In this document: positions 31,465 through 60,992 of the stretch, piece after piece
Layout of the letters: the number at the start of each line of letters is the position of its first letter
Numbering within the stretch: the stretch's first letter is position 1
Assembly: GCA_036344135.1 (NCBI GenBank)
Contig: JAYYUG010000097.1
Coordinates: 8,034 to 72,033 of the forward strand
Length of the DNA: 64,000 bases
Source: Pseudomonadota bacterium
Lineage (GTDB): Bacteria; Pseudomonadota; Alphaproteobacteria; MED-G09
Direction: 5' to 3'
Translations under genes and position numbers: made by a program
Notes under the pieces: generated by a model
Seen by the model: only the letters and a program-made list of their open reading frames with translations
Database searches by the model: none
What the model was told of the DNA's origin: nothing

Positions 31465-32529
31465 CTAAGATTCTGATTTTATAAATTTTATTAGGATTTC
31501 AGACAACTCTTTTGCTTTAGTCCATTGATAAAAATGACCTCCACCAATATGGGGTGCACTTTTTGCATTCGGTACCATCGCCAGTACATCTCGTTCAATT
31601 CCATTGGTAACTGGGTCATCTCCAGCAAAAACACTTAAAAAAGGTTTCTCAAAGTTATTAAAAAATTCTCTTGCTTTCTTTTGGGCTTCTAAAGAAGAGT
31701 CTGGGATAATTGGCACATGGCTTGGCATAGCCCTAGGCCCCATTTTATAACTTGAATCAGGAAATGGAGCTTCGTAAACCTTAACTAATTCTGAGCTGCA
31801 TGGAGAAAATCTTTCCAAACCAATTCTTTGAAAAAAATATTGAATAGCTGTGCTTATTTTTGATCTTTTTTCCATCATTTGAGAGCTCAAAAAGCCAATT
31901 GGAAGGTCAACAGTATCCCAGCAAAATTTCTGCCAAAACATAAATTTTAAAGCAGGAGAGCTACTATCGTCCATTTTTCTTAGCTCTTTAGCCATTGATA
32001 TTGGGGTTAGTTTTAAGTCGCTATTTCTAAATTCTATTACTCTTTCAATAACCTCATCGGAAACATCAGGATTATAGGGTAAACCTGTATTTCCTATTGA
32101 GACCTTAGTAAACTTATCTGGGTGTTCAGCTATAACTCTTAAACCTATTAATCCTCCCCAATCTTGCCCGAAAAAAGATAAATCCGAAAAATTATTTTTA
32201 GTGAGCCACTGACTCATCCAATCAACTTGGCGTTGATAACTATAATCTTTTCTAGATGCTGGTTTGTCAGATTTACCATAACCTGGAAGATCAGGTGCAA
32301 TCACTCTAATTCCCGCTGAATTAAAGTATGGAATCATCCTCGCGTACAAATAACTCCATACAGGTTGTCCGTGCATACATAAAATTGATGGACCGTCTTT
32401 CGGTCCCTCATCTATATGATGAATTCTAAGATCGCTGCCATCATGTGTCTTGATAACTGTATAAATGGGTTCAAAAGGATAATCTTTTATTTTTGAAAAA
32501 CATTTATCGGGTGTCCTTAGTATATCCAT
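31465..32529 (-). CDS. Alpha/beta hydrolase with Asp nucleophile (haloalkane dehalogenase / epoxide hydrolase-like)
   Basis: HGQPVWSYLY...APDLPGYGKSDKP and nucleophile elbow GQDWGG (D-W-G). Confidence 0.7.
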   Translation of the reverse strand: MDILRTPDKCFSKIKDYPFEPIYTVIKTHDGSDLRIHHIDEGPKDGPSILCMHGQPVWSYLYARMIPYFNSAGIRVIAPDLPGYGKSDKPASRKDYSYQRQVDWMSQWLTKNNFSDLSFFGQDWGGLIGLRVIAEHPDKFTKVSIGNTGLPYNPDVSDEVIERVIEFRNSDLKLTPISMAKELRKMDDSSSPALKFMFWQKFCWDTVDLPIGFLSSQMMEKRSKISTAIQYFFQRIGLERFSPCSSELVKVYEAPFPDSSYKMGPRAMPSHVPIIPDSSLEAQKKAREFFNNFEKPFLSVFAGDDPVTNGIERDVLAMVPNAKSAPHIGGGHFYQWTKAKELSEILIKFIKSES

Positions 32530-44027: not shown

Positions 44028-45341
44028 TTAGCAATCAGTAATTGATATTTTTTCTTTATTGCTAACAAGACGGATGTCATTATGAGAGACGAGAGTATTT
44101 AATTCTTTTTCGTCTATTTCAAGCAGCAATTTTATAATACCTACCTCATTTGTTGTCTCTTCTACAACCTTGTCTAATGAATAAAGTTTAGACCTAATTT
44201 TTCCTTGATTAGGCTCTAACTCTATCCATTGTCTCATAATATTTTTTTGTCTATGGAAGTGGATTGAACTTACAAGTTCATTTATTCCTTGATTTCTTAA
44301 AGCTGATATCCAAACTTCATAACTAGACTTCTTCACTAAATTACTATTTAAATTTGGCTCAATCTTATCGCATTTATTGTAAACTTTGATTTGAGGTATG
44401 CTAGATAAACCCAACTCTTCGAGAATTTTTAAGACTTGTTCAGATTTAAAAAGAAAGTCGGTATCAGAGATATCTATAACATGGATTAATACATCTGCTG
44501 CTTTCAATTCATCTAATGTGGCTTTGAATGATTCAATTAGTTGTGTAGGTAAATCTGAGATAAACCCCACGGTATCAGAGAAAAGAATATCTTCTAGACC
44601 TAAAATGGAATTTTTCCTGGTAATTGAATCTAGGGTGGCAAAAAGCTTATCATCAGCATATAGCTGACTTTGAGTTAATAAATTAAAGAGGGTAGTCTTT
44701 CCTGCATTGGTATAACCAATTAGAGCTACTAAGGTTTGACTGCTTTTCTTTCTTGAATATCGGTTAACCTTCCTTTGTTTGTGAGTTTTATCTAGTCTTT
44801 TCTTTATACTCTTAATCCTATGATTTAGGAGTCTCCTGTCGGTCTCTAATTGAGTTTCCCCTGGACCCCTTAAGCCTATCCCACCTTTTTGCCTTTCCAA
44901 ATGACTCCATCCTCTAACAAGTCGAGTTGAAAGATGGGATAATTGAGCTAGCTCAACTTGCAATTTTCCGACATGGCTAGAGGCTCGAACAGAAAATATA
45001 TCTAAGATTAATCCAGTTCTATCTAAAACTCTCTTCTGGAAGATATTTTCTAAGTTCCTTTCCTGAGAGGGAGATAAGTCGTGATTAAAAATTACCAGGT
45101 CTGAGTGTGTTTCTTCTGCAAGAATCTTAATTCTTTCCACCCTTCCTTTACTTATAAATAATCCTGAAATTGGTTTAGTTTGCTTAAAAATCTTTTCGTA
45201 AGATATTTTGGCGCCCGAGGAAAGAACCAACCCTTTAAATTCTGCAAAAGCATCCAAAGAAGAAAATTCTTCTCTTTTTTTGGGAAAATCAACCTGTATA
45301 ATTATAGCTCTTTGATCAAAAGATTCTTTTATTTCTAACAT
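44028..45341 (-). CDS. hflX: GTPase HflX
   Basis: HflX N-domain, G1 GYTNAGKTTLFN, G3 DTVGF, G4 NKCD; 437 aa. Confidence 0.9.
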   Translation of the reverse strand: MLEIKESFDQRAIIIQVDFPKKREEFSSLDAFAEFKGLVLSSGAKISYEKIFKQTKPISGLFISKGRVERIKILAEETHSDLVIFNHDLSPSQERNLENIFQKRVLDRTGLILDIFSVRASSHVGKLQVELAQLSHLSTRLVRGWSHLERQKGGIGLRGPGETQLETDRRLLNHRIKSIKKRLDKTHKQRKVNRYSRKKSSQTLVALIGYTNAGKTTLFNLLTQSQLYADDKLFATLDSITRKNSILGLEDILFSDTVGFISDLPTQLIESFKATLDELKAADVLIHVIDISDTDFLFKSEQVLKILEELGLSSIPQIKVYNKCDKIEPNLNSNLVKKSSYEVWISALRNQGINELVSSIHFHRQKNIMRQWIELEPNQGKIRSKLYSLDKVVEETTNEVGIIKLLLEIDEKELNTLVSHNDIRLVSNKEKISITDC

Positions 45342-45399
45342 ATCTTTTGTCTCAAAATATTATCTTTCTAGAGGTTTTGATATCACAGACTGCTTTCAT

Positions 45400-46341
45400 T
45401 TATTCCCAAACAATAACCATTCTTCCTCTTGTTCCACCTGCATCAAGACTCTTATGTGCTTCAGAGGCATTTTCCGGTGTTACAGTATCAGCAACTCTTA
45501 ATGTAATTAAACCGTCTTCAACTTGTTGGCGAATTTTATCTAGCCTTTCAAAATCACAATCGTAAACTCTAACCCATGTCGTTGAAAATTTGATATCTCT
45601 TTGTGGATCCCCTTTAAATCCCCTTATAGAGGTAAAAGATCCACCATCTTTTACGGCCCCAATAGCTAACTCATTTAGCAAAGCTCCATCAGCTAATCCA
45701 TCTACTCCATCAGGATAGATTCCTCTAATTTTTTCAGAAAAATTATCTCCTCTTGGAATAATGTGATCAACTCCAAGATCATTTAGTAACTTTTTATCGC
45801 TTTCGTTTGAATCAACTATTACAATTAGACCATCTGCCTTGGCAAGCTGTATTGCATAACCTCCATAAGCCCCAGGCCCACCAGTGACAGCTAATACTTG
45901 TCCTGATTTTAAGTTTAATAAATCTAGAGATAAGCGGGCAGTCAAACTATTCATAGGAAGTGTACAGGATTCAATATGTGAGGCATTTATAGGAGATCTT
46001 ACAACGGCATATTGATCAAGTATTATTTGCTCTCGATAAGCACCATAATCTCCTTTTGGGATTACCATACCCATAACCCGATCACCAACTTTTATATCAG
46101 TTTTTATTCCATCACCAACTTGATCAACGATACCAGCAATATCCATCCCTGGCACACAAGGCAGGGAAAAATCTTTTTGGAATTGTGCAATTAATCCACT
46201 TCTTGAAACAATATCTGTAGGATTTACTGCTGATGCATAATTTCGAATTCGTACCTCACCTGAGCCAGGATAAACTTCTGGAACTTCCATAATCTCGAGA
46301 ACCTCAGGCCCTCCAAAATTTTTAAATCCTACCGCTTTCAT
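45400..46341 (-). CDS. MDR-family NADPH:quinone oxidoreductase
   Basis: GroES-like N-domain, Rossmann GGPGAYGGYAIQLAK. Confidence 0.85.
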   Translation of the reverse strand: MKAVGFKNFGGPEVLEIMEVPEVYPGSGEVRIRNYASAVNPTDIVSRSGLIAQFQKDFSLPCVPGMDIAGIVDQVGDGIKTDIKVGDRVMGMVIPKGDYGAYREQIILDQYAVVRSPINASHIESCTLPMNSLTARLSLDLLNLKSGQVLAVTGGPGAYGGYAIQLAKADGLIVIVDSNESDKKLLNDLGVDHIIPRGDNFSEKIRGIYPDGVDGLADGALLNELAIGAVKDGGSFTSIRGFKGDPQRDIKFSTTWVRVYDCDFERLDKIRQQVEDGLITLRVADTVTPENASEAHKSLDAGGTRGRMVIVWE

Positions 46342-46406
46342 TTTTACCTCTCTCTTTTACTGGATAATATTAAAATCTATCATTTTTTGTTGCCCTCACT
46401 CAATAG

Positions 46407-46778
46407 TTAGTCTACAAGACTTCCTTCAAACGCTTTGACTTCCTGAGGAAAAGAGCCTGAAAATTTATAAAAATTAAATAATCTCTCTCCTTTAGCATTT
46501 TTTATAGATATAAGTCCTTCACCACCTTTATCTCCTTTATCAGTACTCACTTCAACTTTACAAATATCATTCCAGTTAACATGGATATGGGTGTCGTCGT
46601 CAATATCTAGTCTATCTTCATCAGTCATCTCATTAATAAAAAATTTTCCACTCATATCAGCACTATAGCTTCCTAACTTTTCACTTTGGAATAATAATTC
46701 TCCGCACTCAAACAATGTCTCAAAAAACGCTCTTTGTTTATTACTGATTATTTTGTTCATTTTTCTATACCTAGTCAA
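46407..46778 (-). CDS. Hypothetical protein
   Basis: 123-aa ORF without recognizable motifs. Confidence 0.35.
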   Translation of the reverse strand: MTRYRKMNKIISNKQRAFFETLFECGELLFQSEKLGSYSADMSGKFFINEMTDEDRLDIDDDTHIHVNWNDICKVEVSTDKGDKGGEGLISIKNAKGERLFNFYKFSGSFPQEVKAFEGSLVD

Positions 46779-46838
46779 ATAAATCCCTAAACCAGGGAAT
46801 AATTGGAAATAATATCTCAGTAAACTAAGGTATTACAG

Positions 46839-46891
46839 CTAATTCTATTATTGTGCCATCTGGATCATAAAAGGCCACTATACCACTGGAA
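46839..46891. repeat. 53-bp perfect direct repeat, copy A (intergenic; encodes an orphan VOC C-terminal fragment ..SSGIVAFYDPDGTIIEL.. on minus strand)
   Basis: CTAATTCTATTATTGTGCCATCTGGATCATAAAAGGCCACTATACCACTGGAA identical to 48152..48204; flanks show decaying similarity. Confidence 0.85.
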
Positions 46892-46950
46892 TAATTTGAT
46901 GCATGATGATTATAAGAAATATTGGCCAAATTAATTAGATAGGAGAAATT

Positions 46951-48054
46951 ATGAGTGAATTGCAGACCTTAAAAAGAGATTTAACTAAGACCCGTATTGT
47001 TGATGGAGGCAGTGATCGAGTTAATTTAGATGAGGGAGAGATTGCAGTAAAAATTGAGCGCTTTGCCTTTACTGCAAACAATATAACTTATGGCGTTGCC
47101 GGCGATACGATGGGATATTGGCAATTTTTTCCATCATCAGATGATCCAACAGAGGAATGGGGGTGTATCCCTATGTGGGGGTTTGCTGAAATCAGTCATT
47201 CAAATAGTGAAAATTTAGAGGTTGGAGAAAAGATTTTTGGGTATTTTCCCCCAGCTAGTTTGTTAACCCTAAAACCAACAAAAGTTACTAATCAAAGTTT
47301 TAGTGATGGTAGGAATCATCGTAGGGAGCTTCCCCCAGTTTATAACAACTATGTGAGGCTTTCTGGTGAAGAAAATTATGACAACAAGATGGATAATATT
47401 AGGGCCCTTTTGTTCCCGCTTCACATAACATCATTTTGTTTATGCGACACTCTTCAAAATGAGTCGTATTTGGGGGCATCCCAAGTAATTATTATTAGCG
47501 CTTCAAGCAAAACAGCAATTGGTCTAGCTCAAGGTCTAGCAGATGAAGATCAAGCACCAAAAATTATTGGTCTTACCTCTTCAAATAATATTAATTTTGT
47601 TGAGAGCTTAGGTTGTTACGATGAGGTAATATCATATGATCAACTTGATATAGTTAATTCTAATAACCCAAGCGTAATGGTTGATATGGCCGGTAACAGA
47701 GAAATCTTGGGAACTCTTCATGAGTTTTTGGGAGATAATATGCTGAAGTGTTTTACCGTGGGAATGACCCACTGGGATAATAAAACGACAGCAGAAGATG
47801 CTCTAGGTCAATTGATGATTCGAGATCGGACTGAATTCTTTTTTGCTCCATCTCATATCCAAAAAAGAATTAGTGACTGGGGCTCAGAAAGCTATAACAA
47901 AAAAACCGCATCTTTTATGGCTTCTCGGGCAACTCAAAGTCAGGATTGGATGCAGGTAAAAGAAATCTCTGGCCTAGAGGATTTTTTAGGCACTTACAAT
48001 GAAGTTGTTGCGGGAAATATCAATCCTAATGAGGGAATAATTGTTGTTCTTTGA
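46951..48054 (+). CDS. Hypothetical protein with MDR/Rossmann-like features (possibly DUF2855-type)
   Basis: 367 aa; degenerate nucleotide-binding stretch IIISASSKTAIGLAQGLA; lies between the two 53-bp repeats. Confidence 0.45.
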   Translation: MSELQTLKRDLTKTRIVDGGSDRVNLDEGEIAVKIERFAFTANNITYGVAGDTMGYWQFFPSSDDPTEEWGCIPMWGFAEISHSNSENLEVGEKIFGYFPPASLLTLKPTKVTNQSFSDGRNHRRELPPVYNNYVRLSGEENYDNKMDNIRALLFPLHITSFCLCDTLQNESYLGASQVIIISASSKTAIGLAQGLADEDQAPKIIGLTSSNNINFVESLGCYDEVISYDQLDIVNSNNPSVMVDMAGNREILGTLHEFLGDNMLKCFTVGMTHWDNKTTAEDALGQLMIRDRTEFFFAPSHIQKRISDWGSESYNKKTASFMASRATQSQDWMQVKEISGLEDFLGTYNEVVAGNINPNEGIIVVL

Positions 48055-48083
48055 TCAATGAAAGTCTCCTATATGCACAATAT

Positions 48084-49463
48084 TCAATCAAATAAGTCTT
48101 TGAACCAGATGATAACTGGGAATAATATTCTTGCATAGAAAGGCATTTCAACTAATTCTATTATTGTGCCATCTGGATCATAAAAGGCCACTATACCACT
48201 GGAAGAATTTGGTCCATCACAACAAGGTGTTATATCTGAAATGAATTCAACACCTTGGGTTTTAAGAATTTCCACATCCTCTTCTAAATTACTAGTTGCT
48301 AAAGCGATCCTATGAATACCTAGATGATTAATAGGTATAGGATATGGTTTGTCTAAATCAAAAGGTCTTATCCACTGAACCAACTCCAATTTTGATTTGT
48401 CTTCATTGTGACTAAATAAACCTCCCTTTAATTCAATTTCTTTTTCAAACCCTAAAGCTTTAGAGACCTCAAGAGAATATTTATTAGGCTTTTCATGCAA
48501 TAGCTCGTAACCAAACATTTTATACCAAGATCTAGACCTTTCAAAATCACTCACATTAATTGTAACTTCTCCGAGGCTTTCAATGAAAGTAGTTTTAGTT
48601 TCTTGAAGTTTTCCTGATTTTTCTACTAACTTATAAAAAGTACCATCTGGATCTTTAAAAAAAACAAACTTTATACCTGTGGGATCAGTTACTGGGGTTG
48701 AAATAAAACTAATTCCATTTTCTCTCATATACTCATAGTCATGATCTAATTTACTCGTATACATAGTAGCACTAACCATACCAAGATGATTCAATCGCCT
48801 GTATGGAACATCTGCATTTCGAGGTATTTTAAATTCGATCAAATCTATAACACCGCCTTTAAAATTATTAATCCCTAGAAGTTCCCCGTAAAGAAGATAA
48901 CCCCCTGCTTCACCCCCTTGAGAACCATCGTAAGAGGTTGGATTCTTAATGCCCATAGCTCTTGCCATATCAAGAGTATTTGTTTCAGGAAAACCACTTA
49001 ATGATTCAAAACCTAAGATGCTATAAAAAGCCTTTGAAATATCAAAATCCTTAACATTTGTATTAAAATGAACACGAGATATTACATTCAAATTTATATC
49101 CGCTTTTTGCTTAATTCTTATAGAAATTTTTCCATCAGCAAGATTTTCAAAGTAAGTAGCTAAATCATTATTTTTAGAAAGCTTAATATCTTCTTTAAAA
49201 CATTTTTTTGATAAGTTTGTAACGTTTTGAAAAACTTGAATACCATTTAATTCTATTATCAGTTTTGTTTTTGAATCTGGAATACAAATATATAAATGAG
49301 CAGGACCACTTACTCCAAAGAAACTTACCTTATTCTGCTTATCATCATTAGGAAGGTGATGGGATAGATATCTAGTAAAATCTATCTCAACAGCATAAGA
49401 AATTTCAGAATATGAAATTAGATAAAAAACTACAAAAAAAATTTTAATAAGTTTTAGTATCAT
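48084..49463 (-). CDS. Secreted protein with N-terminal unknown domain and two tandem VOC/glyoxalase domains
   Basis: Signal peptide; two VOC modules (HLGMVSAT...FKDPDGTFYKLVE and HLGIHRIALAT...FYDPDGTIIELVE); its 3' end carries repeat copy B. Confidence 0.7.
   Translation of the reverse strand: MILKLIKIFFVVFYLISYSEISYAVEIDFTRYLSHHLPNDDKQNKVSFFGVSGPAHLYICIPDSKTKLIIELNGIQVFQNVTNLSKKCFKEDIKLSKNNDLATYFENLADGKISIRIKQKADINLNVISRVHFNTNVKDFDISKAFYSILGFESLSGFPETNTLDMARAMGIKNPTSYDGSQGGEAGGYLLYGELLGINNFKGGVIDLIEFKIPRNADVPYRRLNHLGMVSATMYTSKLDHDYEYMRENGISFISTPVTDPTGIKFVFFKDPDGTFYKLVEKSGKLQETKTTFIESLGEVTINVSDFERSRSWYKMFGYELLHEKPNKYSLEVSKALGFEKEIELKGGLFSHNEDKSKLELVQWIRPFDLDKPYPIPINHLGIHRIALATSNLEEDVEILKTQGVEFISDITPCCDGPNSSSGIVAFYDPDGTIIELVEMPFYARILFPVIIWFKDLFD
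48152..48204. repeat. 53-bp perfect direct repeat, copy B (within 3' coding end of the tandem-VOC gene)
   Basis: Identical to 46839..46891. Confidence 0.85.
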
Positions 49464-49669
49464 AATGATTCATTTTGATAACTTGTACTAGAGCAATCCA
49501 TCACCTATCTACATGAGTAAGAAAATTGGTGCTTTGATTTTTCTAATAAGTCTTTGCATTGCGATAAATTAATATTGACAAATGACAAAGAATTAAATGC
49601 CAAAAAAATGCACTGAAATGTATTGGAAAAATACATAAGATTCAATCTTAAAGGTAATTTATCGGCTTA

Positions 49670-50368
49670 CTACCAGGGGTGAATTTCTCCATTCCATTTA
49701 TAAAAGTTACCCGAATCTTCTTTTGACAAACCTGCTATCACTTTGCGAATCCCAGAAGCACTTTCTTCGGAAGTAATTTCTGCCTGGGGACCGCCCATAT
49801 CGGTCTGTACCCAGCCTGGATGCATGATTGAGACTGTTATTGGTTCTGCCGCCCAATCAAGTGATAGTATTTTCCCGACCTTTCCCACAGCAGCTTTTGT
49901 TGTAGAGTAAATATACATACCCCCCATTGGCCAAGTTGATGCCCCCAACTGACTAGAAAGGATCATTAAATTACCATTACCTGAAGCAACCAAGTTTTGT
50001 TTGAAGGCTCTAGCAACAAGGAGTGGTCCAATAGTATTGGTATCAAAATTTCTATGCCATTCCTCTATGTCAATATTATCAATTGACTGCTGATTCACAG
50101 GATCTCCTCCTACTGCTCCCGCAACAATTATAATGGTATCAATTGCATCATCTCCTATACGACCAGCAGCAGCTTCGATAGAAGAAGGATTAGCTACGTC
50201 TAATTGCTCAATTGTAATATTATCTGAGCCAGATGCCAATTCATCAAGCAGTGATGCTGCGTCAGTGTCCCGAGCACAGGCAATAACATTATTACCCTCA
50301 TCAGCATATTGTTTGGTGAGCTCTAAACCTATTCCTCGTGTTGCACCTACAATCATAACATTAGACAT
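49670..50368 (-). CDS. SDR-family oxidoreductase
   Basis: VGATRGIG cofactor motif. Confidence 0.85.
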   Translation of the reverse strand: MSNVMIVGATRGIGLELTKQYADEGNNVIACARDTDAASLLDELASGSDNITIEQLDVANPSSIEAAAGRIGDDAIDTIIIVAGAVGGDPVNQQSIDNIDIEEWHRNFDTNTIGPLLVARAFKQNLVASGNGNLMILSSQLGASTWPMGGMYIYSTTKAAVGKVGKILSLDWAAEPITVSIMHPGWVQTDMGGPQAEITSEESASGIRKVIAGLSKEDSGNFYKWNGEIHPW

Positions 50369-53590: not shown

Positions 53591-53764
53591 TTATTTCTCA
53601 GCGGCAATCCCTTTCTTCAAGGAACCTAATGCAATTACTGCTAACACAGTTAACAATAACCAAACTGATTTGCTAGGAACAACTAAGACACTAGAAATTA
53701 TTGCTGCTGCCCAAAGAATTGCTTGTGTAGTGATAATGTTCTTCAAAATAATTTTCCTTATCAT
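53591..53764 (-). CDS. Possible small two-TM membrane peptide (57 aa), not in ORF track
   Basis: ATG 53764 to TAA 53591; MIRKIILKNIITTQAILWAAAIISSVLVVPSKSVWLLLTVLAVIALGSLKKGIAAEK; no obvious RBS. Confidence 0.25.
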   Translation of the reverse strand: MIRKIILKNIITTQAILWAAAIISSVLVVPSKSVWLLLTVLAVIALGSLKKGIAAEK

Positions 53765-53986
53765 TAATTATATTTTATTCTAACGAAGCAGTACATATAA
53801 TAAATAGATTGTGCTAAGTAAAGATCAATTTTGATTGTCTAAAAGATAAGAAGAAATATAATACATCAAGAGGAAGTATTTATTTATCTTCTTTTATAAA
53901 TAGTTAATTTATCTTGATTTTGACATAATTATTTTTTATAGAAACTGAAGTATGAATATTTTATTTCTACAGAAGGAGTAAATTAA

Positions 53987-60815: not shown

Positions 60816-60992
60816 AAGCAGACTCCTTACTCATAATTTTAATCATAATTTTCCTTATAGCTAATTATATTTTATTCCAACTCAATAGTACATATGAGAA
60901 AAAGCGTATGATTAGCAAATATTTTACAAAATAAAGTGTTGTTGTTAATATCGATGGTGCTGTTGTCAAGATGGCTGGGGGAATCTAAAACC

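Follow-up and report, generated by a model that had tools for sequence, protein, structure and literature searches.

A perfect 53-bp direct repeat beside a VOC gene of an uncultured marine bacterium: the conserved core of an old pseudogene relic, possibly a scar of 3′-end displacement

In the 64,000-nucleotide (nt) stretch of contig JAYYUG010000097.1 (assembly GCA_036344135.1) that was analysed here, hereafter the window, a 53-mer (CTAATTCTATTATTGTGCCATCTGGATCATAAAAGGCCACTATACCACTGGAA) occurs exactly twice, at 46839–46891 (copy A) and 48152–48204 (copy B), with 0 mismatches between the two. Copy B is within a gene for a tandem-VOC protein of 459 amino acids (aa), where it encodes SSGIVAFYDPDGTIIEL, and copy A is in a 172-bp spacer between a minus-strand gene of 117 aa (123 aa in a program-made list of open reading frames, ORFs) and a plus-strand gene of 367 aa that belongs to the family DUF2855. 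Copy A is part of a dead remnant of the last 44 codons of a VOC allele, an orphaned 3′ end, which sits just where the VOC 3′ end would be if VOC directly preceded the 117-aa gene. It is very probable that this pseudogene relic is old and inert, and that no active or recent insertion is involved. How it came about is less certain, but we lean, if not heavily, towards its being the scar of a recombination with a diverged VOC-bearing segment that displaced the 3′ end of the gene. The first-pass annotation, which drew attention to the repeat, was right about its perfection and its two copies, and its recognition of copy A as an orphan fragment of the VOC gene is borne out by homology that runs in frame to the stop codon. 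Its proposal of an insertion or duplication scar at the 3′ end of VOC survives to the extent that a rearrangement did leave a scar there; the implied recent insertion of a single gene does not, as the relic is common to diverged relatives.

How much of the VOC gene is left at copy A? A repeat search of the window returned a 130-nt repeat of 82% identity that contains the 53-mer, and in-frame comparison gave homology from 46771 to ~46902 with 48084–48215, both on the minus strand, i.e., 132 nt or 44 codons with zero indels. Both copies stay in the VOC frame and terminate at the equivalent stop codon (DLFD* in each, asterisks being stops), the relic being translated as ASNYSSGIVAFYDPDGTIIELAVIP*FTEILFPIIPWFRDLFD* and its live counterpart, the last 44 codons of the functional gene with copy B inside them, as GPNSSSGIVAFYDPDGTIIELVEMPFYARILFPVIIWFKDLFD*. 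The protein context of copy A had been described as diverged immediately on both sides. Actually, distal to the core the entire C-terminal tail is recognisable, and on the proximal side homology continues for ~11 nt before it stops at the rearrangement junction. Sequence specific to the live copy upstream of the core is …TGTGATGGACCAAATTCTTCC…, and the tail specific to the relic beyond the core is …GAATTAGCTGTAATACCTT[A/G]GTTT…, the relic-type distal tail being …FPIIPWFRDLFD* (…IIPWFRDLFD) at the protein level. One premature TAG, at 46825–46827 on the minus strand, interrupts the relic; at that place live alleles with what is termed below the WFAK-type tail have TGG and the window's own VOC has TTC. 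The 117-aa gene (46407–46760, minus strand) has its ATG on the same strand as the relic and 10 nt beyond the relic's final stop. The 123-aa ORF call takes as its start a TTG within the relic; a length of 117 aa was also called in L001, L006 and L105, three of the related loci introduced below. In the junction itself (46903–46916), identified by aligning the window to L006, L015 and L109, the end of relic homology is followed by the first bases of the annotated start of a SnoaL_4 gene (ATGATGATTAT) and by the scar of a ~657-bp deletion of that gene.

Relatives were gathered from exact-protein look-ups and a DUF2855-anchored metagenome scan, and comprise ~25 close loci with nucleotide identities of 92–99%, plus more distant ones; a scan of genome collections added one locus with VOC, L094. 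The same relic is found in L001, L002, L006, L007, L009, L010, L015 and L105–L111, and half of it in L012/L013. By sublineage, relic and junction are the same in A (the window, L001, L109, L110), B (L006, L007, L009, L010, L015) and D (L105–L108), and the relic is truncated in C (L012/L013). Such recurrence bears on whether the repeat could be a dispersed element of the REP (repetitive extragenic palindromic) or MITE (miniature inverted-repeat transposable element) kind, or an artefact of assembly, for either of which the only argument is that two identical 53-mers exist. Independent assemblies from different samples (L002, L105, L106, L109, L006, L007, L009, L010, L015) contain the same structure, which is therefore not an assembly artefact. 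No third copy is present in the window even with 3 mismatches permitted (shuffles matching, 0 of 100), related loci have at most two copies and unrelated loci zero, and both copies in the window are in-frame VOC coding sequence. These counts refute the widespread REP-like repeat that the first-pass annotation had kept in reserve, and dispersed repeat and artefact together have practically no chance of being the explanation.

The age of the relic is apparent from the same relatives. Those with flanks diverged by ~5% (12% at fourfold-degenerate sites) have this relic in the same position, with an unchanged junction, the window and the L006-type lineage, for instance, being 4.9% diverged overall and 12% at fourfold-degenerate sites. 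The premature TAG is in the relics of the window, L001, the L006-type loci and L109, but lineage D retains TGG with all 44 codons open, so the TAG is a later step in the decay. L109 has an identical run of 60 nt between relic and live copy. The two 53-mers of the L006-type lineage have come to differ at 3 positions, one change being in the relic and two in the live gene, and it was just such a finding, the same arrangement in relatives with diverged copies, that the first-pass annotation had said would point to an ancient event. These comparisons show the relic to be old, common to at least four sublineages of which one still has the TGG. Between the window and the L006-type loci the relics differ at 6 of 146 sites (4%), and fourfold divergence in the genes on either side is 3% (117-aa gene) and 6% (DUF2855). 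The relic thus diverges at the local neutral rate of 3–6% with no constraint detectable, and purifying selection on it was rejected for that reason.

Could the relic nevertheless have been retained for a function, as a promoter or leader for the 117-aa gene, a terminator or insulator, an antisense partner of VOC mRNA (if transcribed with the leader of SnoaL_4/DUF2855), or a silent donor cassette? It fills nearly the whole divergent intergenic region between the 117-aa gene and SnoaL_4–DUF2855, so promoters must be in or beside it; its distal tail is invariant among relics (0/29 differences) though very unlike that of live alleles; there are hints, considered below, of exchange with the live gene; and a hairpin with a T-run after it is predicted for the coding strand (46798–46784). 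The neutral divergence between lineages speaks against all of these functions, as does the loss of the relic, wholly or in part, from L008, L012/L013 and L014/L094 with neighbouring genes intact. No suitably placed sigma-70-like site was found, Rfam gave zero matches at E <= 1 across 45000–50000, and the hairpin, being no more stable than shuffled sequence (z = -0.3), was discarded as evidence of function. A retained functional relic is very unlikely. The hairpin (TCCCTG-GTT-TAGGGA then TTTATTT, 46784–46798, minus strand) is in the distal tail of the relic and is formed largely by relic-specific substitutions. The equivalent stem in the live VOC gene of the distant relative L016 is significant (z = -2.6), and the stem of that type may be a VOC terminator that overlaps the end of the coding region.

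Why should a perfect core stand beside such diverged tails? Over 142 nt there are 31 differences, i.e., 78% identity overall and 65% outside the core, and when 31 differences were scattered uniformly over 142 nt, a 53-nt identical run arose in 0 of 200,000 simulations. The 132 nt were split into three segments, a block of 64 nt (the core with 11 nt added), a proximal tail of 39 nt and a distal tail of 29 nt. In that order, the window relic differs from its own live copy at 3/64, 13/39 and 10/29 positions (chi-square p = 0.0008), and the lineage D relic from its own at 3/64, 4/39 and 9/29 (chi-square p = 0.003), so that uniform decay from identical copies is ruled out. Two live alleles, window-type and L014-type, show the same heterogeneity when compared with each other (0/64, 10/39 and 3/29, the tails totalling 13/68; p = 0.0003), and what resembles an att core is therefore how VOC alleles normally diverge. 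The core encodes IVAFYDPDGT(I/V)(I/V)EL, the most conserved motif of the protein family and near-invariant across it even at 50% identity; it is the slowest-evolving stretch of VOC, and the C-terminal tail is the fast-evolving part. Far from being the att-site candidate that had been proposed, the 53-mer has no present-day role as a recombination site, and is what remains of a 64-nt stretch that was identical, or was made identical by crossover or gene conversion, in both alleles.

The tail is informative in a different way. At 9–10 of 29 positions (31–34%) the distal tail of the relic departs from live alleles, which makes it as distant from them as is the outgroup L016, yet among all relics the count is 0/29, so the divergence predates the common ancestor of the relics. 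The ratio of nonsynonymous to synonymous differences per site (pN/pS) is 0.3–0.5 for relic versus live copies and 0.2–0.5 for functional alleles, though on small counts. The favoured interpretation of these sequence comparisons is that the relic would already have been a different allele when it was orphaned. The competing possibility is intragenomic duplication, the last 132 nt of VOC having been copied within one genome during the placement of SnoaL_4/DUF2855, so that the copies were identical at birth, the tail later diverged and RecA-dependent conversion kept the block. For a distal tail 31–34% away from live alleles, with local neutral divergence of 3–6%, that would take decay many times older than the clade and conversion that spared exactly that part, and pN/pS, small counts again, is below expectation if most changes arose on a non-coding relic. 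A perfect repeat of 53–64 nt does exceed the minimal length for RecA-dependent exchange, and to this extent duplication with conversion is favoured, as it is by two hints that the copies have exchanged sequence. One is that in lineages C and D a derived GTG to GTA change inside the core is present both in the relic and in the lineage's own live VOC, a coincidence with a chance of ~2/(64x3) = 0.01. The other is that the WFAK-type live tail (…PWFAKILFPII…) is nearer the relic in its proximal half (4 versus 10 differences) and nearer the window-type live tail in its distal half (9 versus 3; Fisher p = 0.047). With conversion attested by one shared site and one marginal test, intragenomic duplication is unlikely, though of the rivals it is the one to be taken most seriously.

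The half-and-half tail is compatible with one relic-to-live gene conversion and also with import of a divergent allele into the window lineage; it is thin evidence and a lead only. The window-type tail (…PFYARILFPV…) resembles those of the distant relatives L016, P0013 and P0014. A recent foreign import of the window's VOC tail was considered since L001 has no VOC, and the divergence profile proved to be only moderately peaked at the tail. That relic and live gene still exchange sequence by gene conversion across the 53–64 nt block, the relic serving a secreted enzyme as a silent store of alternative C-terminal tails, is improbable. If it were so, one transfer would explain why the live VOC of most lineages has a relic-like W-F-A-K proximal tail, versus F-Y-A-R in the window lineage and distant relatives, and an ordinary metabolic gene of an uncultured marine bacterium would be subject both to C-terminal displacement without an integrase and to cassette-like conversion.

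Gene maps of the related loci, built by tblastn and given in the orientation of the window, fall into six arrangements. The first (T1: the window, L002, L105, L106) is QOR, 117-aa gene, relic and DUF2855, with VOC convergent to DUF2855 and then SDR. The second (T2: L001 and L003, 99% identical to the window) is the same without VOC, and the third (T3: L006, L007, L009, L010, L015, L109) is T1 plus a SnoaL_4 gene between relic and DUF2855. In T4 (L008) SnoaL_4 is truncated and there is neither relic nor 117-aa gene; in T5 (L014, L094) 154 bp of unrelated non-coding DNA replaces the 117-aa gene and relic; and in T6 (L012, L013) the 117-aa gene and the distal half of the relic are deleted. The T5 replacement (L014 2675–2828 and its L094 equivalent) has the same boundaries on both sides and no similarity to any fetched sequence. 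That the repeats bracket exactly one gene, as first reported, is correct for the window and not for T3 relatives, in which they enclose two, SnoaL_4 and DUF2855. As L109 is window-like yet retains SnoaL_4, the single bracketed gene of the window results from the recent ~657-bp deletion of SnoaL_4. The absence of VOC from L001/L003 is a 1,483-bp deletion exactly between two copies of CTTTGAT, a 7-bp microhomology present in the window at 48049–48055, where it overlaps the DUF2855 stop codon, and at 49532–49538, L001/L003 being joined there directly to window 49539 onward (junction at L001 9089–9110). The polymorphism among the window's closest relatives (99% identical) is thus VOC loss, not DUF2855 loss. 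VOC-positive and VOC-negative variants co-occur in metagenomes, in which short contigs break at the CTTTGAT points. Truncated VOC proteins with aberrant C-termini (P0177, P0178, P0180, P0182 and P0187; e.g., …ISRIRLFCESNHIED) suggest frameshifted or partly deleted VOC genes, in line with recurrent VOC loss.

Direct repeats that flank an insert, an insert that supplies a near-identical 3′ end and an original end that becomes a pseudogene fragment are also what integrases leave when they insert into the 3′ part of genes, and at icd and tRNA targets replacement sequences have been described with blocks of identity as long as ~250 bp (PMC10111431). In form the present repeat qualifies, with a 53-nt perfect core (64 nt ancestrally) within 132 nt of homology and an intact live VOC. 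Is it then the remains of a decayed site-specific integrative element, with the 53–64 nt block as att core, integrase and most of the element later deleted, and SnoaL_4 and DUF2855 left as cargo? Small deletions are indeed frequent at this locus, and one of them could have taken an integrase with it. Nevertheless, just as the first-pass annotation had it, no variant of the locus has an integrase, transposase or other recombinase in its Pfam-annotated gene calls, be it between the repeats or in the ~8 kb to either side of them. The empty site that might have been looked for in related genomes, VOC directly followed by the 117-aa gene, was found in 0 of ~25 close loci. Apart from two metabolic-type genes nothing of an element is to be seen; the 53-mer has no match in 2.9 million viral contigs, the region has no plasmid match and the 64-kb window has no tRNA gene. 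The supposed cargo has a longer history at this place. In L016 DUF2855 and VOC are convergent and followed by SDR, on the same strand as VOC, without a relic (identities to the window of 75% for DUF2855, 57% for VOC and 87% for SDR), so DUF2855 looks to be a long-standing chromosomal neighbour of VOC, not the cargo of a recent insertion. A decayed integrative element is accordingly hard to credit, and we consider it quite unlikely.

L016 is without the 117-aa/QOR/HflX block, and has a GST-like gene and a hydrolase gene upstream of DUF2855; the window homologue of that hydrolase is 14 kb away, at 31477–32529. The relic marks the end of the …HflX–QOR–117-aa block where it abuts the DUF2855 side in this clade. 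L017 has an L016-type arrangement in which VOC has been deleted to a 14-codon 3′ stub (VFF*IILWFRGLID, 2196–2237) directly after the DUF2855 stop, an independent loss of VOC that also left a 3′ remnant. Together with the CTTTGAT deletion in L001/L003, the truncated SnoaL_4 of L008, the half relic of L012/L013 and a 42-aa NTF2-like fragment in T3 loci, such a stub is of a kind with the remnants that microhomology deletions leave in flexible regions. What sets the relic apart from a simple microhomology deletion is that a second full VOC copy would have had to exist first, and its position beside the 117-aa gene together with its allelic type of divergence argues for a recombination event, not for deletion alone.

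The course of events that we infer, the identity of the donor included, would be one old recombination in the ancestor of the species-level clade. A segment with the convergent VOC 3′ end, DUF2855 and SnoaL_4, a convergent order that is native to L016, would have met a chromosome whose VOC preceded the 117-aa gene. One end of the exchange would have been homologous, in or upstream of the conserved part of VOC. The other would have fallen 132 nt short of the resident stop codon, either as an illegitimate join or because a circular intermediate carried homology no further. The live VOC would then owe its 3′ end to the incoming DNA, and the resident 3′ end would have been pushed aside together with its downstream gene, i.e., a 3′-end or C-terminal displacement. 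Afterwards the relic would have drifted neutrally, with microhomology deletions removing SnoaL_4 (window), VOC (L001/L003) or the 117-aa gene and relic (other lineages).

Displacements of this sort have been proposed before. [quoted passage not shown] As in those systems, the incoming segment here would share a conserved part of the gene and bring its own 3′ end; the resident 3′ end is a same-strand orphan downstream, to which its own following gene (here the 117-aa gene, starting 10 nt past the stop) is still attached; a conserved block stands beside a variable tail, and there is no integrase. The tip, moreover, shows the divergence of an allele rather than that of decay, on the small counts given above for block against tail, for pN/pS (0.3–0.5) and for the invariant relic tail. 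The differences are nonetheless considerable. This is an ordinary enzyme of the VOC superfamily and no polymorphic toxin, the tip that was displaced has just 44 codons, of which 22 are variable, and there is a single displacement, not an array. The DNA accompanying the new 3′ end encodes unrelated DUF2855 and SnoaL_4 proteins on the opposite strand, not a new tip with its cognate immunity gene, and nothing points to a functional pairing of the 117-aa protein with VOC. It works like a displacement event but is outside the toxin-locus family.

Several considerations weigh against displacement. The parental arrangement, intact VOC and then the 117-aa gene, was found in no contig, which is why the mechanism remains an inference, and no live VOC with a relic-type tail was found among 120 representatives and 36 cluster members; of 27 cluster members with a readable C-terminus, 26 are WFAK-type, one is FYAR-type and 0 are relic-type. 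The more distant homologues of the 117-aa protein (~75% identical) follow guaA and are not next to a VOC gene, and close ones all have DUF2855 in between. In those distant loci (L097–L104) the order is guaA or amine oxidase, the 117-aa homologue and a GNAT acetyltransferase, or guaA, a 78-aa version and purD; the 117-aa gene itself belongs to the flexible gene pool. Instead of being identical at the event, the 64-nt block may have been made uniform afterwards by gene conversion; either party could have been the donor, and the incoming DNA could have been linear or circular. The relatives, furthermore, are metagenomic contigs from a few sublineages that also recombine with one another. Fourfold divergence along the locus (46930–49480, window versus L006/L013) is a mosaic, with 3% in the 117-aa gene, 6% in DUF2855, 18% in VOC and 15% in HflX and a step near 47.7–47.9 kb, inside DUF2855, which bespeaks homologous recombination between lineages; with a range of 3–18% and such recombination, tree-based polarisation is weak.

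As to the genes themselves, those between and around the repeats include DUF2855, SnoaL_4, VOC, SDR, PNP, QOR and HflX. The VOC gene (48084–49463, minus strand; glyoxalase/dioxygenase superfamily) encodes an N-terminal hydrophobic leader and matches Pfam Glyoxalase in two stretches (E = 7e-18). Its orthologues, ~90% identical, occupy the same locus in related lineages, and identical-protein look-up gave no exact record for the window's protein. The bracketed gene (46951–48054, plus strand), convergent with VOC, had been put down as hypothetical and Rossmann-like, which is not all that can be said of it, since it is DUF2855 (PF11017) from end to end with E = 7.6e-100; a literature search for DUF2855 gave no paper. 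The 117-aa protein has neither a Pfam nor an NCBIfam match. Near-identical VOC genes (P0155, P0175, L094) are in metagenome-assembled genomes (MAGs) labelled at NCBI ‘Rhodobiaceae bacterium’ and ‘Dehalococcoidia bacterium’, and more distant VOC homologues come from Pseudomonadales/Halieaceae; the MAG labels conflict, and the taxonomic assignment of the clade is unreliable.

Other gene fragments and cassettes are present at the locus. Between SnoaL_4 and DUF2855, at L009 4374–4502 and the equivalent place in L109, is the 42-aa fragment mentioned above, which resembles the N-terminus of an NTF2/SnoaL-like protein (…DFYSGISGGNIEIVESLLDDNFELIVPMSEG…) and is a further gene stub. The annotated start of SnoaL_4, an ATGATG at the edge of the relic, is probably wrong, the GGAGGAACTATG start 27 codons downstream looking better. 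L012 (5511–7926) and L094 (3402–6000) have an extra 2.5 kb between SDR and VOC, which in L012 encodes a PQQ-repeat protein, an RDD-family protein and a 120-aa protein, and in L094 is unannotated and deduced from spacing only; it is another presence/absence cassette at the same locus. Elsewhere in the window is a second direct repeat, of 78 nt and 77% identity, with both copies in divergent intergenic regions: 53748–53825, between a 314-aa gene (minus) and a TonB_C-like 132-aa gene (plus), and 60845–60922, between a 151-aa gene (minus) and a 493-aa gene (plus). It may be a shared operator or promoter element.

What, then, is to be taken from a repeat of this kind? It calls for neither a new mechanism nor a new function, being one more case of a familiar kind of event, at a small indel hotspot. 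A striking perfect direct repeat around a single gene can mimic the signature of a mobile cassette, and here it is the slowest-evolving part of an old pseudogene fragment. Gene stubs can also mislead annotation, as with the 123-aa ORF call that overlaps the relic and the annotated SnoaL_4 start at its edge. For uncultured marine bacteria the locus would be an example of how flexible regions turn over, by one homologous-plus-illegitimate recombination and then by repeated deletions of 0.5–1.5 kb between microhomologies of 4–7 bp, and, if displacement is the right reading, 3′-end displacement, best known from toxin loci, can affect an ordinary enzyme gene.

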